DNA of 10,757 bases. Origin: a virus. Lineage: Duplodnaviria; Heunggongvirae; Uroviricota; Caudoviricetes. The notes under the pieces were generated by a model, which saw nothing but the letters and a program-made list of their open reading frames with translations, ran no database searches and had not been told where the DNA came from. The position numbers and the translations under genes are program-made. Below, piece after piece: positions 1 to 10,757 of the stretch. The DNA is taken from positions 1 through 10,757 of the IMG/VR virus record IMGVR_UViG_2778261515_000020, one strand, 5' to 3'. Position 1 is the stretch's first letter. Every line of letters starts with the position of its first letter.

Positions 1-588
1 TTCAGGCCAGATGACATCCGGCGCGGTGCTGGTATCTGTTGCCGTCACCGCGTCAGTGTAATCCAGCACGGCGTTAAGTCGGGTTGTTTCTGCCTGCGTC
101 AGTTTCCGTCCGGCCTGCAATTTCAGTTGAATCAGACTGATGGAAGCCATAGCAGCATCAATCAGTGACTGGCGCTGTGCTTCTGCCGCTTCGACTACGG
201 CGCTATGCTGTGCCTCAGTATCGGTCACCCATTTCTCACCATCCCATTTATCGTATGGAGATAAAGGGGCGATAGTGGTTGTATTTTCAGGGTAATCACC
301 CGGAGCTGTGATTTCTTTTGATTCTCCTGTTTCTGTGCTATAGACGATTTCACCGCGATGGTCTGGCACATATTCCCATGAATTTAAATTCACAGAACGA
401 CAGATTGCATAACCAACCTTATGTATGCCAGGTGCATCAAGACAGGAACATGCTGGAATACCGACCCCCACAGCAAGATATTCAGTTGATGTGGAAATAT
501 ATTCCCGTGTTTCACTATCATAGTTATAGACGGTAATATTCCCCGCCTTCGTGGCAATAAACTCGCTATTTAATACAGCATTATCCAT
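1..588 (-). CDS. Phage tail fiber assembly protein (Tfa/gpG-like), partial; C-terminus lies beyond the window start
   Basis: Hand translation of the minus strand from the ATG at 588-586 gives MDNAVLNSEFIATKAGNITVYNYDSETREYISTSTEYLAVGVGIPACSCLDAPG...APDVIWPE with no stop through position 1 (196 codons). The N-terminal motif and the DVIWPE-type C-terminal region are typical of enterobacterial Tfa proteins. The start overlaps the stop of the upstream cassette (TAATG). This ORF is absent from the supplied track because it is truncated. Confidence 0.8.
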   Translation of the reverse strand, partial: MDNAVLNSEFIATKAGNITVYNYDSETREYISTSTEYLAVGVGIPACSCLDAPGIHKVGYAICRSVNLNSWEYVPDHRGEIVYSTETGESKEITAPGDYPENTTTIAPLSPYDKWDGEKWVTDTEAQHSAVVEAAEAQRQSLIDAAMASISLIQLKLQAGRKLTQAETTRLNAVLDYTDAVTATDTSTAPDVIWPE

Positions 589-1034
589 TATGCAGCCCTC
601 ACGATATAGTTAAATGCAACATTTCGTGGGCGGGTTTCGTTACCGCCAGGGAGCTGAAAAGCGTTGATAATCCCACCGCTTGCCTGACTTATTCCATCCG
701 TGTACAACCCGCCACCGGCACTGTCGCTGAGTGCAAATGTTTTTGATGGTGAACTGTTTGAAGCTGGTCCCCAGTATTTTAATGCGAGCTTTCTGACTTC
801 ATCACTCTGAATACTCAATAAAGCACGCCCTGTATCAATGCTGCGCCCATCATCCCAGCCACGAATAAACTCACCGCGGAGATCAGGTAGTTTCCCTGAT
901 GGATATGCTGTAGCAAGACGGGGATATTTAACCTTATCAAAGGCAGCGCCATTGCATTTCAGCCAGCCTGTTGGCGGCGTAGCTGAAGGCCACGGAACAG
1001 GGACACCAACAGGTAATGCAGAGCCTTCTCCCAA
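588..1034 (-). CDS. Tail fiber C-terminal variable cassette B (tail-collar-like domain); promoterless 3' gene segment
   Basis: The ORF translation contains LPVGVPVPWPSATPPTGWLKCNGAAF...LPDLRGEFIRGWDDGR, which matches the phage tail collar domain pattern as I recall it. The first codon in the track is TTG, not ATG, and there is no RBS, so this is a cassette rather than a free-standing gene. It ends ...NYIVRAA with its stop overlapping the tfa start. Confidence 0.6.
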   Translation of the reverse strand: MGEGSALPVGVPVPWPSATPPTGWLKCNGAAFDKVKYPRLATAYPSGKLPDLRGEFIRGWDDGRSIDTGRALLSIQSDEVRKLALKYWGPASNSSPSKTFALSDSAGGGLYTDGISQASGGIINAFQLPGGNETRPRNVAFNYIVRAA

Positions 1035-1047
1035 ACCAACGTTTTTA
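807..1047. repeat. Direct repeat copy 1 (about 241 bp, roughly 85% identical by eye to 1294..1534); 5' conserved part of cassette B
   Basis: Visual alignment of the plus strand: ctgaatactcaataaa...ccaaaccaacgttttta is shared by both copies, with identity breaking sharply after gttttta. Confidence 0.75.
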
Positions 1048-1051
1048 TGCA
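1026..1051 (-). other. Candidate invertase crossover site (hix/gix/pix-like) at the 5' end of cassette B
   Basis: The minus strand reads TGCATAAAAACG-TT-GGTTTGGGAGAA, resembling the AAAACC-NN-GGTTT core of Hin/Gin-family sites as I remember them. It sits exactly at the homology breakpoint between cassettes A and B. Confidence 0.4.
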
Positions 1052-1563
1052 GCTCTCACAATAAAGTTGAATGCAATATTGCGCGGTCGTGTTTCGCTCC
1101 CGCCTGTGTTACCAATACTCCCTCGTGTATGTAGCGTTGGTGATGGAATCAGGGTTCCGCCTGCACTGGTACCATCCAGTCCCTTGCCCTGTGTATATGC
1201 TCTTCTGAAGATTGCCGCCAGTTCCCATACCTCTTTTGAGTCATACCCATCGTTGGCGACAACAGGATGACGGTGCTTTTCCAGCATTCCGGCCTGAATA
1301 CTCAATAAAACACGTCCAGCATCAATACCGCGCCCATCATCCCAGCCACGAATAAATTCACCGCGTAAATCAGGCAGTTTTCCTGACGGGTACGCTGTGG
1401 CTAGTTTGGGATACTTCAGCTTATCAAAGGCAGCACCATTGCATTTTAGCCAGCCCTCTGGAGGTGTGGCTGAAGGCCACGGAACTGTTACACCAACAGG
1501 CAACGCAGAACCTTCCCCCAAACCAACGTTTTTAACTTCGAAAACAGAGCTATCTAATAGCAT
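1045..1563 (-). CDS. Tail fiber C-terminal variable cassette A (tail-collar-like domain); promoterless 3' gene segment next to the invertase
   Basis: The translation has the same tail-collar-like motif (LPVGVTVPWPSATPPEGWLKCNGAAF...LPDLRGEFIRGWDDGRG), then a divergent middle, then the same C-terminal tail as cassette B (ETRPRNIAFNFIVRAA). There is no RBS upstream of the ATG at 1563. Its position next to the invertase matches the silent S'v-type segment of Mu G / P1 C / e14 P systems. Confidence 0.6.
   Translation of the reverse strand: MLLDSSVFEVKNVGLGEGSALPVGVTVPWPSATPPEGWLKCNGAAFDKLKYPKLATAYPSGKLPDLRGEFIRGWDDGRGIDAGRVLLSIQAGMLEKHRHPVVANDGYDSKEVWELAAIFRRAYTQGKGLDGTSAGGTLIPSPTLHTRGSIGNTGGSETRPRNIAFNFIVRAA
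1294..1534. repeat. Direct repeat copy 2 (about 241 bp); 5' conserved part of cassette A
   Basis: Visual alignment with 807..1047. A second shorter shared block, about 75% identical by eye, lies at the cassette 3' ends (591..648 versus 1048..1105). Confidence 0.75.
1513..1538 (-). other. Candidate invertase crossover site (hix/gix/pix-like) at the 5' end of cassette A
   Basis: The minus strand reads AAGTTAAAAACG-TT-GGTTTGGGGGAA. The right half and centre are shared with the cassette B site and the left half differs, as with hixL versus hixR. It lies about 55 bp upstream of the invertase start. Confidence 0.4.
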
Positions 1564-1591
1564 TTTTACTAACAGAAACAGGATGCTTTTT

Positions 1592-2191
1592 ATGCAAATT
1601 GGCTATATTCGCGTATCAACAAATGACCAGAACACGGATTTGCAACGCAATGCGCTCAATAGCGCAGGATGTGAACTGATTTTTGAAGATAAAATCAGCG
1701 GAACAAAATCAGCCAGACCGGGATTGAAAAAACTGCTCAGAACGTTATCAGCGGGGGATACGCTCGTTGTCTGGAAACTGGACAGGCTGGGCAGAAGCAT
1801 GAAACACCTGATCACACTGATTGAGGAATTGCGGAAAAAAGGTGTCAATTTTCGTAGTCTGACGGATTCAATTGATACCAGTACCCCAATGGGACGATTT
1901 TTCTTCCACGTGATGGGCGCCCTGGCTGAAATGGAACGTGAATTAATTGTAGAGCGTACACTGGCCGGACTGGCAGCAGCCCGCGCACAGGGGCGAATTG
2001 GTGGGCGTCGCCCGAAACTGACAAAAGAGCAACATGAGCAAATAGCGAGGCTGATTAAAAACGGCCACGACAGAAAACAGCTGGCCATAATTTACGACAT
2101 CGGTATATCGACGATTTATCGTTATCACCCTGTAGGTGACACGCAACCCGGAGGAATAATTGAGAATACTCAGGAAACAAAAAACCGCTAA
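1592..2191 (+). CDS. Serine-recombinase DNA invertase, Hin/Gin/Cin/Pin family
   Basis: MQIGYIRVSTNDQNTDLQRNAL...DTLVVWKLDRLGRSMKHL...SLTDSIDTSTPMGRFFFHVMGALAEMERELIVERTLAGLAAARAQGRIGGRRPKLT closely resembles the Hin and Pin sequences as I recall them, including the catalytic Ser in IRVST and a C-terminal HTH. The start was chosen at the ATG at 1592 (AGGA 8 nt upstream). The track ORF from 1397 is an upstream artefact. Confidence 0.9.
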   Translation: MQIGYIRVSTNDQNTDLQRNALNSAGCELIFEDKISGTKSARPGLKKLLRTLSAGDTLVVWKLDRLGRSMKHLITLIEELRKKGVNFRSLTDSIDTSTPMGRFFFHVMGALAEMERELIVERTLAGLAAARAQGRIGGRRPKLTKEQHEQIARLIKNGHDRKQLAIIYDIGISTIYRYHPVGDTQPGGIIENTQETKNR

Positions 2192-2211
2192 TCTGAACAT
2201 TAGCGGTTTTT
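2181..2211. terminator. Bidirectional intrinsic terminator between the convergent invertase and U genes
   Basis: Perfect 12-bp stem AAAACCGCTAAT / ATTAGCGGTTTT around a 6-nt loop (CTGAAC), with A-tract on one side and T-tract on the other. The stem overlaps the invertase stop codon (2189-2191) and lies 9 nt from the U stop. Confidence 0.6.
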
Positions 2212-2219
2212 ACGTTAAA

Positions 2220-2708
2220 TCAGAACACCCCTTTAACTGAGCTGACCACATTGTTAAGGGATGATGTCACCTTATCTTTAAGACCGGACAGCATATCACT
2301 GAACGATGAGGATTGCAGGCGCTCCCGCAAATCCTCATCACAGCGTTCAAGGGTCAGGGAAAACTCTATCTTTTTCGCTTTCCCGTAGCGATCCAGTTCA
2401 GAGCGGGTCGTGCTCGTTTCAGTCAGAACATACATGCCGTAAATCTGCCCGACGCCATCAATCAGAGGCCACGGGCGTCCCGCATACGCCTGCGTGGCCA
2501 GCAGCGACAGCGACACTTCGCCGCCTGTAATCTCAGGATAAAGCACGCCGGAAAGAACGATGCGATCATCACCTGCACCGATATACTGCCAGCTTGCTGA
2601 ACGGTTAACGCGCTCGTTTTTCACATGTCGCCAGCTTTTGTTTTGCTGTAACTGCTGATGCGGTAATGTGCGCAACTCAAAAACAAACATGCCGTAGATC
2701 ATCATCAT
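2220..2708 (-). CDS. U: P2 gpU-like tail protein
   Basis: 162 aa beginning MMMIYGMFVFELRTLPHQQLQ...WPLIDGVGQIYGMYV, resembling P2 gpU as I recall it. AAGGAG lies 7 nt upstream of the ATG and overlaps the T stop. It sits immediately downstream of T, as in P2. Confidence 0.85.
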   Translation of the reverse strand: MMMIYGMFVFELRTLPHQQLQQNKSWRHVKNERVNRSASWQYIGAGDDRIVLSGVLYPEITGGEVSLSLLATQAYAGRPWPLIDGVGQIYGMYVLTETSTTRSELDRYGKAKKIEFSLTLERCDEDLRERLQSSSFSDMLSGLKDKVTSSLNNVVSSVKGVF

Positions 2709-2719
2709 GGCACGACTCC

Positions 2720-5557
2720 TTACTCTTTATCATAAAAGCTACCACGCCCGGCACGGGTACGCCGCTCCAGTTCTGCCCTGACCATTTCGCCGACCAGTTT
2801 CGCCAGTTCGCGGGGATTCTGCGTAACAACGTTATGCAGATGGACATGAATTTCACCACCAAATTCGGGTGCCGCAGTCTCCCGGCTGCGGGAAGATGCG
2901 GAAACGGGCGCAACTGGCGCACGTGCGGCCTCCACGACCGGACGGGAGCTTGCTGCAACAACAGGGGGCAACACCGGAGATAACGGAGCCGGGACCACGG
3001 GTGTGATGTTGATTGCGGAAGCAGGCTTACTGACCTGCGCAATCTTCCGCTCCTGCCACTCCCCGCGAACAGCAAGCGCACGGGGCAGGTTCTTAAAGAC
3101 AATATCACCGGGGCCGATACGCTTTTTCGTCTCATCAACCAGCTTGCCTGTGTTATCTGCAATTTTGCTGAGCCTGCGCAGCGTGCCAGTGTTGTTGTCC
3201 GTGAGCGGCTTGTTGTCTTTAGGCTTATCGCCTCCGGTCCCTGTTTCCGCAGATTTCGGCGGATTGATTTTTGCCAGGTCCCCCTGAAGCAAAGCAACCT
3301 TGTCCTGAAGAATGGCCGCACGCTGCGCGTCTTCGATTTTCTTTCTCGCCCTTTCCGCTTCATCTGGAAGGACGCCAAGTTTTTCCAGTATCCATGCCAG
3401 CGTATCCAGCAGCATTTTTGCAGGCGTCAGGACAAGCTGTAACGCACCGCCAAGAACGTTGCCGAACACCTCGCCAGCACTGGTGCATTTATCCAGCGTT
3501 TCCTTACTGGATTCCATCGGTGACAGCAGCGATGTAAACCAGTTAAAGACCTGAATCACGCCATCACGAACTAGTTCGAAAACAGGGCCAAACCGTTCAA
3601 AGGTTTCGCGTAACGGGGCCAGCCGCTCCATAATCCCGCTGAACACCCCGGCAAAAAATGCCCTGATTGGGTCCCAGTATTTCCAGATGAGAGCGGCAGC
3701 TCCGGCAAGCGCAGCCACGATAAGACCGACCGGGCTGAACAACGCCCCGATAGCGCCTCCAAGTAAAGAGACGGAACCCGCCACCATTCCCCACAGCGCT
3801 GGCAGGACCCTGACAGCATTCATTGATCCGGTCAGGAGGGAAAAACCAAGACGCAGTTTTGCCAGCGGGCCAGCAAGCACCCCAAGAGCCAGTGACAACG
3901 AGCCAACCGTTGCAGTCATTGCCAGCAGCGCACCGCCTGCAATCAGTAGCTGGCGCGTCAGTGCCGGATGGGCCTGCGCCAGCTCCGTCACCTTTGAGAC
4001 CACCCGAGTGAGCCACTGCGTGACAGAGCGCAGCGGACCGTCAATCAGATCCGCAATGCGGATACGCAGCCCCTCCCATGCACTGCCGAGTGATCTCAGG
4101 TCGCCATCAAGGTTATTGGCCATAACCTTTGCCGTGCGTTCAGCCTCACCGCGTGCGCCTTCAAGTTCTTTTCTCAGCTTGGGCAGAGAACCGTCACCTG
4201 CCGCATCAACGAGGGCCATAAATGACGTGAAGGCCTCTTCTCCGGCTATGTCCTTAAAGAACGATACCCGGTCAACTTCCCCGTATTTGCGGGTGGCTTT
4301 ATAAAGGTCGGCCAGCACATCCTCCATCGGGCGCATTTTGCCGTTCGCATCAGAGACAGCCACACCAAGCTCTTTCAGCGCCTCTGCTGCCGCCTTTGGC
4401 GGTGATGCCAGACGAGCAAGGCTGGCACGCATTGCCGTCCCGGCATCACTCCCTCTGATACCCATATTCGCCAGCACGCCCGCCATCGCTGCGGCCTGCT
4501 CCAGCGATATTCCCAGCTTACCCGCCACCGGACCTGCATATTTCATGGTTTCGCCCAGCGCGCGAAGGTCGGTGTTAGTACGGGTAAACGCCGCAGTAAG
4601 TGTGTCGCCGACCCGGTCCATCTGGTCAGCAGAGAGACCGAACTGCGTCAGGATATTTGAGCCAATATCCGCCGTCTCGCCAAGGTCCATACCGCCAGCC
4701 GTTGCCATGCTCAGCACGCCGGGAAGCGCAGCCTGAATGGCTTCTGGTGTGAAGCCAGCCATAGCAAGAAATGCCTGCCCACTGGCGGCATCACTCGCAG
4801 TAAACTGCGTTTCAGAGCCGAGCTTTAGCGCCTGCTCACGCAGCGCCTTAAACTGCGGGCTGTTCTGGTCAATTCGCGTCAGCGCCTGCACACGGGACAT
4901 CTCTTTCCCGAATCCGATAGCGGGCTGCAAAAAACGCCCGGCAGCATAGCCGCCAGCCGCTGCCGCACCAGTTGCCAGCGCACCACCCGTTTTCAGTTTT
5001 CCCGCTGTTTCCTGCGCGCGTGAATACTGCTCACGCGCCCGCGTTACACGCGCAAGCGCCTGTCGTTCGCGTTCAAGCTGGTTGTTGTACTGTTCGGTGC
5101 GTCTGATGGCCTGCTGGATGGTGTTATCGCTGCCTGTCAGGGAAATACCGTGGCGTTTAAGCTCTCCGCCAAGCTCCCGCATTTTCTGAATTTCCCGCGT
5201 GCGCGATTCATTCAGGCGTTCAAGCCGGGTGCTTAACTGCTGCATCAGCCTTTGTTGTTTTTCGCTGAGCACAGTACCCGTGCGTTGTAACTGATGAAGG
5301 GCGTTAAGCTGGCGTCGTGCTTTCACGATGCCAGCATCCGCTTTACTGACAGCATCGCGGGCGCGCTCAAATGAACGCGCCTGACGCTCGAGATTTTTGA
5401 TTGCCCCCTGCGTTTGCTGGATGGAGTCACCAAGCCGCCCCATCAGGCGGCGGGCGTTTTCGGCTGGCCGGGTCAGCCTGTCAACAGCACTGAAGGCGAC
5501 CCGAATGTCAAGAGTCTTCATTGTCTGCATTCCCACTGCGAAGTGCCGCCCGCTCAC
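2720..5557 (-). CDS. T: Tail tape measure protein (P2 gpT-like)
   Basis: ORF of about 945 aa with coiled-coil-like Q/R/E/A-rich N-terminal half, a central hydrophobic glycine/alanine-rich segment, and a position between E/E' and U. The start is uncertain: the longest ORF begins with GTG at 5557, and in-frame ATGs at 5530 and 5521 are alternatives. Confidence 0.8.
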   Translation of the reverse strand: MSGRHFAVGMQTMKTLDIRVAFSAVDRLTRPAENARRLMGRLGDSIQQTQGAIKNLERQARSFERARDAVSKADAGIVKARRQLNALHQLQRTGTVLSEKQQRLMQQLSTRLERLNESRTREIQKMRELGGELKRHGISLTGSDNTIQQAIRRTEQYNNQLERERQALARVTRAREQYSRAQETAGKLKTGGALATGAAAAGGYAAGRFLQPAIGFGKEMSRVQALTRIDQNSPQFKALREQALKLGSETQFTASDAASGQAFLAMAGFTPEAIQAALPGVLSMATAGGMDLGETADIGSNILTQFGLSADQMDRVGDTLTAAFTRTNTDLRALGETMKYAGPVAGKLGISLEQAAAMAGVLANMGIRGSDAGTAMRASLARLASPPKAAAEALKELGVAVSDANGKMRPMEDVLADLYKATRKYGEVDRVSFFKDIAGEEAFTSFMALVDAAGDGSLPKLRKELEGARGEAERTAKVMANNLDGDLRSLGSAWEGLRIRIADLIDGPLRSVTQWLTRVVSKVTELAQAHPALTRQLLIAGGALLAMTATVGSLSLALGVLAGPLAKLRLGFSLLTGSMNAVRVLPALWGMVAGSVSLLGGAIGALFSPVGLIVAALAGAAALIWKYWDPIRAFFAGVFSGIMERLAPLRETFERFGPVFELVRDGVIQVFNWFTSLLSPMESSKETLDKCTSAGEVFGNVLGGALQLVLTPAKMLLDTLAWILEKLGVLPDEAERARKKIEDAQRAAILQDKVALLQGDLAKINPPKSAETGTGGDKPKDNKPLTDNNTGTLRRLSKIADNTGKLVDETKKRIGPGDIVFKNLPRALAVRGEWQERKIAQVSKPASAINITPVVPAPLSPVLPPVVAASSRPVVEAARAPVAPVSASSRSRETAAPEFGGEIHVHLHNVVTQNPRELAKLVGEMVRAELERRTRAGRGSFYDKE

Positions 5558-6040
5558 GCCAGCTAACCACTTCGCCGGGCGTCATCATGAAGATTTCGGC
5601 GGGCGACCAGTTAAAAATAACGGCAATATCTGCCACAAAGTCTTCTATGTGCTCAAAGCACACAACCGTGATCAGGCTTCCGTCGCCTGTTCGTTCTTCC
5701 CGCCAGAGTCCGCACCGCTCAAAAAATTTACGGCAACCACACATAACTGAATAAAGTCACGGGATGCCATTTTTTTGATCGTCACTTCATCCAGTCGCGG
5801 TGATGTCACGCGTGACAACAGCGTAAACATGGATTCCGCTTTCAGACTCAGCACATCAGACAGCGACAGACCACGCAGGGATCCAGCCTGCTCAATAGCC
5901 CCGGTGATCTCCACATACGTGATTTTTTCGTCGCCTCGCTCAATTGGCTGGGTAAGTTTTACGCCGCGCTCGCTGGTTTCTTTCGCAGTATCAGCAACCA
6001 CCACAGCGTTTTCAGTATCGGTATTTTTCGTCTCTTTCAT
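5508..6040 (-). CDS. Tail assembly chaperone E+E' fusion made by programmed -1 ribosomal frameshift
   Basis: Slippery heptamer T TTT TTG in the zero frame of E (minus strand, 5720..5726, codons Asn-Phe-Leu 105-107). The -1 frame continues ...FFERCGLWREERTGDGSLITVVCFEHIEDF...NADNEDS to a stop at 5508, matching the track ORF 5508..5744 and overlapping the T start. This is the same arrangement as P2 E/E' and lambda G/GT. Confidence 0.7.
5672..6040 (-). CDS. E: Tail assembly chaperone gpE-like (zero-frame product)
   Basis: 122-aa ORF between FII and T. GAAAGGAG lies 8 nt upstream of the ATG at 6040. It contains the frameshift heptamer near its 3' end. Confidence 0.8.
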   Translation of the reverse strand: MKETKNTDTENAVVVADTAKETSERGVKLTQPIERGDEKITYVEITGAIEQAGSLRGLSLSDVLSLKAESMFTLLSRVTSPRLDEVTIKKMASRDFIQLCVVAVNFLSGADSGGKNEQATEA

Positions 6041-6094
6041 CAGAAAACTCCTTTCAGTCAGAGGCGACGCACTGCGCCGCCTGCATATTACTTA

Positions 6095-6607
6095 TCAGCC
6101 GAGCCCGAGCGCGGAGCGGATGCGGTCGGGTACAATGTCCTTGCCATCCTTCCGGTAGATGTGGTTCACCAGGTCAATTTCCCACACCGGACGATCGTTA
6201 ATACTCAGCTTGTAGTAGGTGTTTTTGACAGCGTAAGTGTGTGACGTGGCTTCGCCCTGTTTGGCCTCCCCCATATCAATTTCCGTCACACGCCCGCGCA
6301 TCTCGATTTCATACAGGTCGCTTTCTGCATCGGTGTAGTATTCACCCGCAAAACGCAGCAGCGTGCCGTCCATTGTTCCGCCATATTTAAGGAACAGCGC
6401 ACGAACGGCGCCACCCATGACAAAACTCGCATCAAGCGCGGAATCGTCCAGGCCGAGGTCGATACTCACCGCTCCCAGCATGCCACCACCACGATAGCTG
6501 TCGGTTTTACGCGTCAGTTTAGGCGGGGTGACAGACGTCACCTTACCCACTTCATTTTCACCATCCACAAACAGCGTAAAAAAACGAAGATGTTTTGGTA
6601 CGGCCAT
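6095..6607 (-). CDS. FII: Tail tube protein (P2 FII-like)
   Basis: 170 aa at the right size and position for P2 FII. Its start overlaps the FI stop (TAATG). Confidence 0.88.
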   Translation of the reverse strand: MAVPKHLRFFTLFVDGENEVGKVTSVTPPKLTRKTDSYRGGGMLGAVSIDLGLDDSALDASFVMGGAVRALFLKYGGTMDGTLLRFAGEYYTDAESDLYEIEMRGRVTEIDMGEAKQGEATSHTYAVKNTYYKLSINDRPVWEIDLVNHIYRKDGKDIVPDRIRSALGLG

Positions 6608-7791
6608 TAAGCACCTCCAAGCACTGCAAATGCAGGACCAAAGAACTCATCAGTGAACGCCTGGTAAAGCTCCATATCTTCCAGCGGAGGAACGGGCGTA
6701 TATTTATAGCGAATACGCACGCGCCCCTGTCGTAATTCTGTGGTGCTGTTATCCACGATGTCATACCAGCACGATGCGCCAATCAGTTTCCCGGCAGTAA
6801 CCAGCGAATCCAGTTTTGCCCTGATGGCACTGATAACATCCTTCACGTTCGCGGGCGTCAGTGGACTGTCGATGGTTTCAAACTGCGCTTCCGCAATTGA
6901 ATCAGCCAGCACCTGTGCGGTTCGGGTATACACCTCAAAGATGTAGGCATTCGTTTCCGGTGTGCGGTTGCCCCAGAAGCGGAACCCGTTGCGGCGAATG
7001 ATGGTTGTGATTTCTTTGTTGTTGAGGCTGTTGGCATCGCTGTCAGCAGCCTGCAACGACCAGAACACATGCCTGGACATCCCCAGCACATTTTTGACCG
7101 GAACGTTGGACAGCGATTTGTGCCAGCCCTGCTCATGGTCAATGTACGCACGAAGGCCGCACGCATAGGCTGGCGCGGGGAAAACCTCATTCTCGCCACT
7201 TTTCGGGTTGTAAGCGATGAAGTCCGGCCACAGGAGCATCAGCTCGCGTTCGTTGAATTTTTCACGGTATGCAATGGCTTCAGCCATCGTGTTACAGCCA
7301 TGACAGGAGGCATACACAAACGCGCGCAGTTTACCTGCAATCACGCACAGGGATTTTGTCACCGCCTCCGTGTCCAGCCCCGGCGCGGCCAGAATACGCG
7401 GACGGTATCCGATGCTTTCATCCTGCTCTGCAACAAGCAGCGCATACATCCCCGTATAGCTGCCGTCGGATTCAGAACCACCAATAACCAGTTGATCCTG
7501 TGTTTTTCCGTCTTCTTCTTTGTGTTCAGCCACGCGAACGACGATCACCTTTGTGCTCACCTGGTCTGCAATGGGTTTCAGCGCACGGTACAGCGTCCCC
7601 GTTGTCCCGCATTTTCCCAGCACGTCATTGACGCGGGTCACTAATGCAGGCTTGTTCAGCGGGAACAGCTTCGCGTCCGCATCGTCCGCCGTTGCCACGA
7701 TACCGATAACGCTGGAATCAACGTCGTTAATTGCTGTTACCAGGTCGGTACTTTCCGTAACGCGGGCGCCATGAAAACGAGTTTCACTCAT
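6607..7791 (-). CDS. FI: Contractile tail sheath protein (P2 FI-like)
   Basis: 394 aa with motifs I recall from P2 FI (LSNV.V...FW.LQ..., TLIRR.GFRFWGNRT, YTRTAQV.AD, YTPVPPLE). AAGGGG RBS upstream of the ATG at 7791. Confidence 0.9.
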   Translation of the reverse strand: MSETRFHGARVTESTDLVTAINDVDSSVIGIVATADDADAKLFPLNKPALVTRVNDVLGKCGTTGTLYRALKPIADQVSTKVIVVRVAEHKEEDGKTQDQLVIGGSESDGSYTGMYALLVAEQDESIGYRPRILAAPGLDTEAVTKSLCVIAGKLRAFVYASCHGCNTMAEAIAYREKFNERELMLLWPDFIAYNPKSGENEVFPAPAYACGLRAYIDHEQGWHKSLSNVPVKNVLGMSRHVFWSLQAADSDANSLNNKEITTIIRRNGFRFWGNRTPETNAYIFEVYTRTAQVLADSIAEAQFETIDSPLTPANVKDVISAIRAKLDSLVTAGKLIGASCWYDIVDNSTTELRQGRVRIRYKYTPVPPLEDMELYQAFTDEFFGPAFAVLGGA

Positions 7792-7948
7792 AGCTTCAGC
7801 CCCTTGTATCCGTTAAATGATTCGGCAACAATCATCACCCACCACGCGCGTAATCTCACCCCTGCGACGTTCTCCCGCCACGGCGACAACAAAAAGCAGT
7901 AACCCCCTCCGCACGCACATGCGACCATGCCGCACAGGGAGGGAACAG

Positions 7949-9049
7949 ATGACCGACACCACCATGCAATTGCTCAGTCAGGGCACAGACCCCGTGAAAA
8001 TGCCGGATTTTGATATTCTCGCGGAGGGTAAAACGCTGTCAGGCGTGGCAGAGCGCCTGATGAGCCTGTCACTGACCGACAACCGGGGATTTGAGGCGGA
8101 CCAGCTCACCATCACGCTGGATGATGCAGATGGTCAGTTGCAGCTACCGCCACGGGGCGCGCGCCTGACGGTTCTCATTGGCTGGAAAGGAGAACCGCTG
8201 ACAGAAAAAGGCACTTACATTGTTGATGAAATCGCTCACGAAGGACCGCCGGACAGGCTGACTGTTTCAGCCAGAAGCGCAGATTTTCGGGATGAATTTA
8301 ACGTTAAACGTGAGGTGTCCTGGCATGATGTGACCGTTGAGCGTGTGGTATCCGCCATCGCTCATCGGTACGGTCTGAAACCGCAAATCAGCGAAATGCT
8401 GATGGATATCGAAATCGACCACGCCGACCAGACCGAAGAAAGCGACATGTCCTTTCTTACGCGCATGGCGGAAATGCTGGGCGCAATCACCACGGTAAAA
8501 AGCGGTAATCTGTTATTCATTATGCCAGGCGGTGGCGTGAACGCACAGGGCCAGCCGTTGCCATCGTTCGCCATCACGCGCAGCAGTGGCGATCGCCATC
8601 AGTTCCGCATTGCTGACCGCGAAGCGTATACGGGGGTACGCGCTTACTGGCTTGATCTTAATTACGGGAAAAAGAAAAAAGTCAGCGTGAAACGCCGTAA
8701 ACCGAAAATGGAGAAAAGCAGTAGCCGTGAAGGCGACTATATGGAAGGTGCGGAAGGCAACGTGTTTGTGTTACGCAAGACTTATCAGAACGAACAGGCA
8801 GCAAGACGCGCTGCGGCGGCAAAGTGGCAGCAGCTACAACGCGGAGCCGCATCATTCTCCATCACACTGGCACGTGGACGCGCAGAACTCTACCCCGAAA
8901 TGCATGGCACGGTAACAGGATTTAAAAGCGAGATTGATAATCAGGACTGGATTATTGCAAAAGCCGAGCACACCATTGATAACAGCGGCTTTACCACGCA
9001 GCTTGAGCTTGAGGCAAAAATCCCGGAATGGATAGCGGAAACAGAGTGA
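7949..9049 (+). CDS. D: Late control / tail protein gpD-like
   Basis: Long ORF with a lysine-rich patch (GKKKKVSVKRRKPK) and overall gpD-like character. The start was chosen at the ATG at 7949 (GGGAGGG 5 nt upstream), not the alternative-start extension to 7817 in the track. Confidence 0.85.
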   Translation: MTDTTMQLLSQGTDPVKMPDFDILAEGKTLSGVAERLMSLSLTDNRGFEADQLTITLDDADGQLQLPPRGARLTVLIGWKGEPLTEKGTYIVDEIAHEGPPDRLTVSARSADFRDEFNVKREVSWHDVTVERVVSAIAHRYGLKPQISEMLMDIEIDHADQTEESDMSFLTRMAEMLGAITTVKSGNLLFIMPGGGVNAQGQPLPSFAITRSSGDRHQFRIADREAYTGVRAYWLDLNYGKKKKVSVKRRKPKMEKSSSREGDYMEGAEGNVFVLRKTYQNEQAARRAAAAKWQQLQRGAASFSITLARGRAELYPEMHGTVTGFKSEIDNQDWIIAKAEHTIDNSGFTTQLELEAKIPEWIAETE

Positions 9050-9091
9050 GCAACTTAGAATAGCGGCAGCACCACGTTAAGGGAGGTCGCT

Positions 9092-9352
9092 ATGTTCCGT
9101 TGTCCGCTTTGTGGCGCATCTGCCCGTATCCGCACCAGTCGTCCAGAAAATGATTCAAACACCGTGCGGCAAAAGTATTACCAGTGTAACAATCTGGAAT
9201 GCGGCGTATGCTTCTCAACACTGGAAGCTTTCCATAAATTCACATCAAAACACGCCTCCGGCGTTCACTCTTCAGAAGGTATCCCGTGGCATGATCTGCC
9301 AGCTTCACACAGGGGAAACAATCAGATGAGTTTGCCTTTACCTCAGAATTAA
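9092..9352 (+). CDS. ogr: Ogr/Delta-family zinc-finger late transcription activator
   Basis: MFRCPLCGASARIRTSR...YYQCNNLECGVCF is a Cys4 arrangement (C-x2-C ... C-x4-C) with clear N-terminal similarity to P2 Ogr as I recall it (MFHCPLC...ARTSR...YHQCQNVNC). Strong GGGAGG RBS. Located directly after D, as in P2. Confidence 0.85.
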   Translation: MFRCPLCGASARIRTSRPENDSNTVRQKYYQCNNLECGVCFSTLEAFHKFTSKHASGVHSSEGIPWHDLPASHRGNNQMSLPLPQN

Positions 9353-9750
9353 CAGACAGAATTGCCGGAGTAACAAAAAAAGCGATACACCCATTTACCC
9401 GGCAGTACCACTCCCCCGCCCCATAGCTGGCAGTGAGGCGGGATGTTTTGCCTACCCGCCAGCAGGCACCATCGTGGAAATATCCAACATTGAAGGACGC
9501 CCGGATAAGCCTGTTATCAGGCAAATCTTACCCATCGGTCATAACCTGCCTGATGTAAAGCCCGGCGAACAATTGCAACAACAGCGTGCAGAAGTGTTTC
9601 AGCATGTCACGACTGACGGAAGCTGGCGCAGAAAAACCGACCAGCAAATCCAAGAAGAAAAGCGCGTAAAACGATCACTGCTGATGTGGCGTTGCTTTAT
9701 ACAAGCTGCTATTTGCGATATGCTGAACACATCAACCTGTGGAGTGCATT

Positions 9751-10377
9751 ATGAAACAAAAATCAAAGTCTGCTGCCATTGCTGCTATTGCTACAGCTCT
9801 GACAGCATCACTGGCTCCGGTGCCAGCTAAAAGCACGATACTACCAACAACAGTTATTGAATCCGTGACACACGCCAGAGTGGTTTCAATGCTTACATTT
9901 GAGCATCATGATGGTCAGGTGTTTCTGCCTCTTGAAGAAGCTATTGAATATATCAACGGGCTGAATGACAACATGCGTGCCGCGCTCAATGCAGTCATTG
10001 AAGAACGACAGAACAGAGGCAAGGGAGCTCTGTTTGCTGACAAAACCGCAAAAATCATAAAAATATGCGAAGAGTCACTTAAGCAGCACAGCCGTGTTAA
10101 AGAGGCTGTCAAAATTGTAATGGATCCGGATAACCTGGCAAAAATGTATCCGGATAGCATGGAGCAAAGAATCGCCTATCGCAATAAACTGGTTCGTTTT
10201 GGTCGGGCAATTGCGCAGGGAGAGTTTATCGCTCGTGATGCCATCAACGCCATCAAACGAAGCACCGCACCAGACAAAACGACCAGCCTAGGCAATACGC
10301 TGTCTGACGGAAATGTGAAAGCAATGATTATTGCCGAGCATAAAAACATGGGACTCCCGGCACCGGAGTTTTCCTGA
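9751..10377 (+). CDS. Hypothetical protein (208 aa) with a hydrophobic N-terminal segment; first gene of a two-gene cargo operon and candidate partner of the downstream YafO-like protein
   Basis: Start chosen at the ATG at 9751 (GGAG 6 nt upstream); the track begins at an upstream GTG. The N-terminus MKQKSKSAAIAAIATALTASLAPVPA looks like a signal peptide or membrane anchor. I recognise no family. Its stop overlaps the next start (TGATG). Codon usage looks AT-richer than the tail genes. Confidence 0.6.
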   Translation: MKQKSKSAAIAAIATALTASLAPVPAKSTILPTTVIESVTHARVVSMLTFEHHDGQVFLPLEEAIEYINGLNDNMRAALNAVIEERQNRGKGALFADKTAKIIKICEESLKQHSRVKEAVKIVMDPDNLAKMYPDSMEQRIAYRNKLVRFGRAIAQGEFIARDAINAIKRSTAPDKTTSLGNTLSDGNVKAMIIAEHKNMGLPAPEFS

Positions 10378-10757
10378 TGGCAAGCAAAGTAAGCATTCAT
10401 AAAGATGTTGAATACCAGGACATTGCAAAAGTTTACGGAAAGGCTCTGGAAAACTGGTTAAATACCGGTGTTCTCCCTGACAGATTCGGCAATGAAGGGC
10501 AGTGGGAAGATAACGCAAGATTATGTGGTTCGTTTGTATATAAATTACACATAAGACTACCGTCAGAACCACCATGGAAGAAAAGCAAAGCCCAAATAGA
10601 CAGAACTTCAAATATCTATCTGGTTTATACAAGGCACTGGATGGATTATGACAATATACAAATCATCAGCATCATGGCCCCAGATGCTCACGAAAAAGCC
10701 AAAACTTCTTTCATGGCTGAGCTGGAAAGACGGGCAGAAGAATTCCAGAACTCATAA
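10377..10757 (+). CDS. YafO-family toxin-like protein (putative ribosome-dependent mRNA interferase)
   Basis: 126 aa. It shares with E. coli YafO, as I recall its sequence, the motifs GVLPDRFG (YafO GVLPDIFG), HIRL (HIHL), DRTSNIYLVYTRH (RTNDEAHLVYCQG), IISIMAPDAHEKA (LIAILKPEPHKLA) and MAELER (MAEAFR). The assignment is from memory, not from a database search. Confidence 0.5.
   Translation: MASKVSIHKDVEYQDIAKVYGKALENWLNTGVLPDRFGNEGQWEDNARLCGSFVYKLHIRLPSEPPWKKSKAQIDRTSNIYLVYTRHWMDYDNIQIISIMAPDAHEKAKTSFMAELERRAEEFQNS

Follow-up and report, generated by a model that had tools for sequence, protein, structure and literature searches.

The window analysed here, a stretch of 10,757 nucleotides forming positions 1 to 10,757 of the IMG/VR virus record IMGVR_UViG_2778261515_000020, in all likelihood carries the invertase-proximal half of a multiple-inversion host-range switch, in which one serine recombinase of the Din family would exchange the 3′ part of the tail-fibre gene H between three alternative cassettes (A, B and C). 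The switch belongs to a P88-like (Xuanwuvirus, P2-type) E. coli prophage integrated beside serS; its design has already been published for a homologous prophage of enteropathogenic E. coli (EPEC) E2348/69, and the basic principle is established. Three observations carry this interpretation: the anatomy of the locus, the in-frame fusion of the cassettes to H, and the reciprocal exchange of half-sites among natural isolates. Sequence comparison of these isolates indicates that the switch has been recently active.

Cassettes, crossover sites and invertase

A preliminary description of the window had placed in it two promoterless tail-fibre cassettes in direct tandem. Both are present (Table 1), and a promoter scan of the minus (coding) strand returned no sigma-70-like promoter upstream of either A or B. 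The block of about 240 bp said to begin each cassette is a direct repeat of 241 nt (85% identity) that makes up their 5′ parts, and a repeat of 60 nt (588-647 versus 1045-1104, 82% identity) is common to their 3′ ends. At the protein level A and B are 89% identical over the first 80 residues past the site and 45% identical in the remainder, with both tips ending in the conserved ETRPRN-AFN-IVRAA. Whilst the two elements stand, their assignment to starts at 1034 and 1563, taken from open reading frames (ORFs), does not: the functional start of a cassette is the crossover site, which encodes GLGE, and not the ATG or TTG of the mechanically called ORFs. The stop codon of cassette A falls inside the right half of site 2, and the start of tfaB, a tail-fibre assembly chaperone gene cut by the start of the window and contig (196 of 200 codons are present), overlaps the stop of cassette B (TAATG). 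That tfaB follows B had been recognised, but it is not the only such gene, as a second (tfaC) accompanies cassette C beyond the window; TfaB and TfaC are 33% identical.

Cassette A is 82-84% identical to cassettes of P1-like phage-plasmid arrays and of E2348/69, and 92% identical to A2, a cassette of a second P2-like prophage (prophage 2, described below) that is paired with its own tfa. Similarly, tfaB is 90% identical to TfaE of e14 and 91% identical to the tfa following the A-type cassette of prophage 2. Because the tfa of A2 resembles tfaB, because the P1-like arrays place 5-8 collar cassettes ahead of a single tfa of the tfaB type, and because tfaB lies downstream of A in the same orientation in the isomer that fuses A to H, it is most likely that A relies on TfaB; A and B, both collar-type tips, probably share this chaperone.

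The hix/gix-like sequence reported before each cassette is in both cases a hix/gix/pix-like 26-mer, the two lying in direct orientation (site 2, TTCTCCCAAACC-AA-CGTTTTTATGCA; site 1, TTCCCCCAAACC-AA-CGTTTTTAACTT). A 22-nt site consensus matches the window twice against 0.00 expected matches, none being obtained in 200 shuffles. In the H gene of sister prophages the partner site reads TTCTCGCATACC-TT-GGTTTGGGAGAA, in inverted orientation, such that both window sites and the H-gene site share the form TTCYCCCAAACC-AA-N12 of a Din-type 26-bp site; all three have the left half and AA core in common, and the presence of more than two sites beside one invertase is as found in multiple-inversion systems. 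In the notation used below, the left half of a site is linked to its cassette (A, B or C) and the right halves are fixed in position, R0 in H, R2 after cassette A and R1 beside the invertase gene.

The recombinase had been assigned to the Hin/Gin/Pin family, and that assignment is upheld. The 199-residue product contains a Resolvase domain (PF00239, E 2.3e-51, residues 3-135) and an HTH_7 domain (PF02796, E 1.5e-12, residues 138-180), begins MQIGYIRVSTNDQ with the motif GYIRVSTNDQ intact and the catalytic Ser9 aligned with Gin and PinE, and is matched over residues 1-181 by the Gin structures 3UJ3/4M6F at E 1e-88. It is 94% identical to the enzyme of the E2348/69 P2-like prophage, 91.6% to that of P1-like (P1/p15B-like) phage-plasmids, 81.5% to e14 PinE and 71.5% to Mu Gin; size and domain layout, catalytic motif and closeness to characterised members thus all place it in the Din family. 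The distance of about 30 bp given previously holds from the invertase ATG to the ATG of ORF A (28 bp), but the distance to site 1 is 53 bp.

Natural isomers

At 100% identity the window matches one end of contig NLPZ01000048.1 (GCA_002230995.1), and window position 1 is the contig end, inside the invertible region. This break in the draft assembly is probably due to mixed orientations or to the similar tfa of a second prophage. The preliminary description had reasoned that the expressed constant part of the fibre gene must lie beyond the window start and had set an inverted partner site upstream as the test of a switch; H with such a site is indeed found upstream, both in sister prophages and in modules collinear with the window in which H is fused to C.

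Sister prophages that are 100% identical over window 1512-10757 differ by isolate in the cassette joined to H, which is B in ETEC4085 and A in ETEC1749 and rl0044, and their breakpoints coincide exactly with 1025, where identity of 100% to ETEC4085 begins, abutting site 2, and with 1512, where that to UMNK88, ETEC1749 and rl0044 begins, abutting site 1. ETEC4085 has window 1-1042 in inverted orientation, joined to H, and cassette C, which is gp53-like and has its own tfa, takes the place of B. Expressed as half-sites, the window contains B/R2 and A/R1 (with C, we infer, fused to H); ETEC4085 and OkiPb01713 contain B/R0, C/R2 and A/R1, with B fused to H; and ETEC1749 and rl0044 contain A/R0, B/R2 and C/R1, with A fused to H. 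Three of the four predicted isomers, together with one precise deletion of A, are therefore documented. More than one silent alternative exists, as had been proposed; the alternatives number three in total and not two, and H-B, H-A and H-C all occur.

All three fusions are open and in frame, so that a single constant 5′ part serves every tip, as in multiple-inversion systems. B is in frame with H in ETEC4085 and UMNK88, and the H-A fusion is an annotated coding sequence of 1530 bp in ETEC1749 and rl0044. The H-C fusion was built as a prediction, giving 465 aa in frame, and is present at 100% identity and full length on 15 contigs in public data. Among the matches listed, the whole module is spanned at 7 places, in the order I, H-C, tfaC, inverted tfaB, B-type cassette, A, invertase gene and gpU; these modules hold the sites C/R0, B′/R2 and A/R1 and are collinear with window 1-5000 at 87-97% identity. 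Altogether, the complete arrangement of the window with H-C upstream is seen in at least 8 other assemblies. For a 181-nt query across the tandem junction, run in E. coli in distant mode, counts at a coverage of at least 80% were inflated by the joining of BLAST pieces from the ends of one cassette and give no reliable frequency; meaning attaches only to hits in one piece that bear the label 'phage tail protein (x2)'.

The junctions themselves define where exchange takes place. The base at site position 4 (C or T) is in all cases that of the cassette, and the sequence from position 15 onward is always that of the flank; exchange is therefore confined, in every junction, to CCCAAACCAA, some 10 bp around the AA core. 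So narrow an exchange is the signature of conservative site-specific recombination and argues against homologous exchange within the 241-bp blocks. Half-sites are exchanged reciprocally among the natural isolates, which corresponds to the inversion with core exchange that characterises Din systems, here seen by comparison of sequences.

UMNK88 differs from the arrangements above in that it contains only B/R0, with B fused to H, and C/R1. Cassette A and one site are precisely deleted (487 bp; locus position 12002), leaving the C/R1 hybrid site, and this is the product expected from recombination between two direct sites.

Proposed mechanism and its alternatives

In the mechanism we propose, the one serine invertase would act on three 26-bp sites with a common left half and AA core, of which R2 (at 1026) and R1 (at 1513) are the direct sites of the window and the H site (R0) would lie inverted beyond it. 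Synapsis of the H site with either window site would invert the intervening DNA, a stretch of some 1.8 kb where site 2 takes part and of some 2.3 kb where site 1 does. The constant part of H would thereby run on, in frame through the GLGE codons, into A, B or C, and the last 110-160 codons of H would be replaced. The outcome would be four isomers with three alternative fibre tips, of which C is gp53-like and has its own TfaC; in the state represented by the window, C would be expressed, B and A being silent. Catalysis by this particular invertase would be expected, as would dependence on Fis and an enhancer, and a change of host range through the switch of tips would be expected by analogy with Mu, P1 and FRphi. 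Din-family systems have a recombinational enhancer with two Fis sites in the 5′ part of the invertase gene; the 5′ 260 nt of the present gene align with pinE and gin and contain Fis-like matches to a degenerate motif (2 mismatches) centred at nt 101, 116, 138 and 185.

Several points weigh against this interpretation. The window stops at the contig end, and the H site and cassette C are unseen in the source genome itself. Of the four predicted isomers, the one that would place B beside the invertase and express A, with C and tfaC behind it, was not encountered for this prophage in the 5,426 complete genomes, and a chimeric query for the B/R1 junction returned only unrelated junctions at about 87% identity. 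The H-A fusions that were found sit in a hybrid prophage resulting from inter-prophage exchange and not in an unrearranged one. The prophage is also damaged in some carriers, by an IS3 insertion in ETEC1749 and, in UMNK88, by a frameshift in H and an IS3 element that interrupts a virion morphogenesis gene. A two-Fis-site enhancer is not demonstrated, as the Fis motif is degenerate and the published sites could not be placed.

The tandem cassettes might instead be decayed remnants of an old duplication that no longer switch, for which the 241-nt and 60-nt blocks common to the cassettes, the lack of a tfa belonging to A and the loss of A from UMNK88 could be cited. However, A and B are each open and continue the frame of H, at least three arrangements with breakpoints at the sites occur in prophages that are 100% identical over window 1512-10757, and inversion of the homologous module in E2348/69 takes place inside single colonies (PMC4272514); we regard decay as highly improbable. 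Recombination between the 241-bp blocks by a RecA-dependent route, with no part for the invertase, is only marginally easier to entertain and remains very unlikely. Whilst these blocks are long and 85% identical, and Goldberg et al. termed the corresponding repeats 215-bp inverted repeats (IRs), homologous exchange would leave junctions at varying points of the blocks and yield hybrid cassettes, whereas in every junction the A, B and C blocks are unchanged up to the site and the partner flank follows directly, exchange being limited to about 10 bp around the AA core (about 30 bp in the inter-prophage event). Cassette C, moreover, has no block in common with A or B, yet uses the same exchange point. 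The least probable alternative, to which we give hardly any credence, is that the arrangements are artefacts of assembling a repeated region: the source contig does end inside the invertible region, and repeats and a second similar prophage are present, but ETEC4085, ETEC1749, rl0044, UMNK88 and OkiPb01713 are all RefSeq 'complete genome' assemblies, their arrangements are internally consistent reciprocal products, and ETEC1749 and rl0044, from different countries, agree.

A narrower alternative accepts that the site beside A recombines and questions whether A does anything, such that A would be a non-functional passenger without a cognate adjacent chaperone and only B and C would give working fibres. 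A is the sole cassette with no adjacent tfa, copies of at least 99% identity occur in only 4 of the 5,426 complete genomes, and it has been lost from UMNK88. Against this, the ORF of A is intact, its close relative A2 is paired with a tfa of the tfaB type, tfaB itself stands downstream in the H-A isomer, and the P1-like arrays keep their 5-8 such cassettes with one tfa. The passenger explanation is consequently a good deal less improbable than the three above, but we still consider it unlikely, and favour the multiple-inversion switch with three alternative tips.

Related systems and the surrounding prophage

The closest known counterpart is the P2-like prophage of EPEC E2348/69 (locus NC_011601.1 1891695/1892127-1893703), for which Goldberg et al. 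2014 (Genome Med 6:112, PMC4272514) described three repeats and two nested inversions and, by PCR and sequencing, four coexisting variants with three alternative C-termini. The two loci agree in phage type and in the order of H, tandem cassette, tfa, cassette, invertase, inverted U-to-FI operon, D and ogr; they have in common the left half-site and AA core, a closely related invertase, an A-type tandem cassette (83.5% protein identity to A), two nested inversions one cassette length apart (about 2.0 and 1.6 kb in E2348/69, against about 2.3 and 1.8 kb in the present prophage) and the number of variants and C-termini. In contrast to the three collar cassettes and one tfa of E2348/69, the present locus has two collar cassettes and a gp53-like cassette C with a second tfa, and the cassette tips and right half-sites differ. 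Switching was demonstrated experimentally in E2348/69, whereas here it is read from the comparison of isolates.

The likeness to the Min multiple-inversion system of plasmid p15B, reportedly described by Iida et al. in 1990 and by Sandmeier, Iida and Arber (see also reference 61 of PMC6906374), had also been pointed out beforehand, and is upheld by the relationship between the invertases and by arrays of 5-8 tandem cassettes. Both systems combine one Din-family invertase with many sites and with tandem promoterless 3′ cassettes that have a conserved 5′ block and one tfa; unlike Min, the present locus has only three sites and four isomers, and lies in a chromosomal P2-type prophage and not in a P1-type plasmid. 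The Min type is represented in our comparison by P1-like phage-plasmids. Collar-cassette arrays lie in loci L009 (1478-4824), L024 (8987-11891) and L039 (5649-7528); each of the 5-8 tandem cassettes has the left half-site found in the window, and the invertase is the 91.6% identical enzyme. In L009 and L039 one tfa follows the array, and past the invertase gene L009 matches L039, a P1-like plasmid, at 98.9% identity. We had considered IMG/VR arrays of 7-8 cassettes as larger P2-type versions of the present locus, but one of them, L009, proved to be a P1-like phage-plasmid of the Min type.

Similar to the G segment of Mu (Gin), the C segment of P1 (Cin) and the P segment of e14 (Pin), the locus pairs a homologous invertase and 26-bp sites with the switching of a fibre 3′ part and tfa by inversion, and the left half and core TTCTCCCAAACC-AA are common to the e14 sites; those segments, however, have two sites and two states, whereas an additional direct-repeat site and a chaperone-less cassette would here give four states. 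In the Enterobacter phage FRphi 'shufflon' (Nat Microbiol 2026, PMC13418256), three C-terminal fibre isoforms arise via a gin-type recombinase; the locus becomes fixed in its state when gin is deleted, and a single isoform was infective on the host tested. Up to six paralogues occur in related loci. FRphi is a different phage, likened here by its described design. The resemblance to shufflons of the R64 type is functional only, in that multiple inversions swap adhesin-like C-termini, as Rci, which uses sfx sites, belongs to the tyrosine recombinases and the present enzyme is a serine recombinase, which places the locus outside that group. What is distinct is the cassette set, with two collar tips sharing one chaperone and a gp53-like tip with its own.

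Table 1. Features of the window and endpoints of the inter-prophage inversion
Feature	Position	Strand	Details
tfaB, tail-fibre assembly chaperone gene	1-588	minus	Caudo_TAP, E 2.8e-31
Cassette B	588-1025	minus	Promoterless 3′ part of tail-fibre gene H; collar domain and variable tip; PF07484, E 8.6e-15
Collar-domain ORFs (mechanical)	588-1034, 1045-1563	minus	
Shared 241-nt block, copy 1	807-1047		5′ parts of both cassettes
Crossover site 2	1026-1051	plus	Heads cassette B; right half R2 holds the stop of A
Cassette A	1045-1512	minus	Second promoterless 3′ part of H; collar domain and different tip, no tfa of its own; PF07484, E 1e-14
Shared 241-nt block, copy 2	1294-1534		5′ parts of both cassettes
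Crossover site 1	1513-1538	plus	Heads cassette A; right half R1 fixed beside the invertase gene
Serine DNA invertase, Din family (Pin/Min-like)	1592-2191	plus	199 aa; Resolvase and HTH_7 domains
gpU, tape measure, E/E′, tube, sheath	2220-7791	minus	
Gene D, ogr-type zinc-finger gene, 212-aa ORF, YafO-family toxin gene	gene D 7817-9049; 212-aa ORF and toxin gene 9739-10757	plus	
Endpoints of 75.8-kb inversion	ETEC1749 ~3447772 and ~3523548 (L004 2722, L035 7062); same in rl0044		Compare L001 10209, L034 7405

As a whole, the window forms the right arm of a P2-type prophage, and serS is the neighbour of the element in E. coli genomes. Phage P88 (Xuanwuvirus, Peduoviridae) is collinear with window 1598-9387 at 92.2% identity, and its annotated gene order matches; the P88 paper contains no mention of an invertase or any inversion (PMC5285337). 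The window also has the arrangement that marks Xuanwuvirus (P88-like Peduoviridae), namely late genes of P2 type and, between the invertase gene and D, an FI-to-U tail operon in inverted orientation. Unlike canonical P2, this FI-FII-E-E′-T-U operon is inverted relative to both H/tfa and D/ogr. We considered whether its orientation is a product of the invertase and rejected the possibility, as the operon has no flanking inverted repeat and the same FI-to-U order is found in P88 and E2348/69; because these two share the order, the inverted operon is a trait of the P88-like group and involves no local rearrangement.

Between the convergent invertase and gpU genes lies a hairpin (2180-2211) with 13 pairs in its stem, flanked by T runs on either side, which is likely to be a bidirectional terminator. 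Gene D (7817-9049) is an intact ORF of 366-410 aa (Phage_GPD), and on the identical D sequence of ETEC4085, UMNK88 and ETEC1749 RefSeq gives only a 263-aa product and a small pseudogene on the opposite strand. At the right end of the prophage (9739-10757), beside serS, a 212-aa ORF with no Pfam match is followed by the YafO-family toxin gene (PF13957, E 1e-27), the start of which overlaps the stop of the 212-aa ORF (ATGA); the two may form an unusual antitoxin-toxin cargo pair.

ETEC4085 contains a second P2-like prophage of canonical P2 layout, 75.8 kb away in inverse orientation. In ETEC1749 and rl0044 the arms of the two prophages are exchanged at their H-gene sites and the intervening 75.8-kb chromosome segment, which includes serS, ftsK, lrp and cydDC, is inverted. 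In these two genomes the H constant part of prophage 1 (the window-type prophage) is followed by the A2, tfa, invertase and tail arm of prophage 2, and that of prophage 2 by the A, B, tfaB, tfaC, C and invertase arm of prophage 1, producing two hybrid prophages and a chimeric fibre gene with the constant part of prophage 2 and tip A of prophage 1. The nearest distinguishing bases place this exchange within about 30 bp of the site. The change from the arrangement of ETEC4085 to that of ETEC1749 permutes four half-sites cyclically and so takes no fewer than three site-specific events. On balance, these junctions suggest that a Din invertase recombines two co-resident P2-type prophages via the same 26-bp sites, a reading we hold with some reserve; no inter-prophage event of such a kind was found described in the literature searched. 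Were the event invertase-mediated, the host-range switch would double as a means by which prophages exchange modules, and large chromosomal inversions would arise from it.

For annotation, these results mean that where P88-like prophages show short 'phage tail protein' ORFs beside a 'recombinase family protein', these ORFs are alternative tips in the silent state and not pseudogenes, which is probably why draft assemblies break at such loci. Isolates of enterotoxigenic E. coli (ETEC) from pigs whose prophages are otherwise identical are several site-specific events apart, which indicates that the switch has been active on the timescale of clonal spread. The precise deletion in UMNK88 illustrates that a small, site-flanked, chaperone-less cassette can be gained or lost precisely, and suggests how large arrays of the Min type are built, and the locus offers a natural scaffold for swaps of receptor-binding tips in P2-type phages or tailocins.

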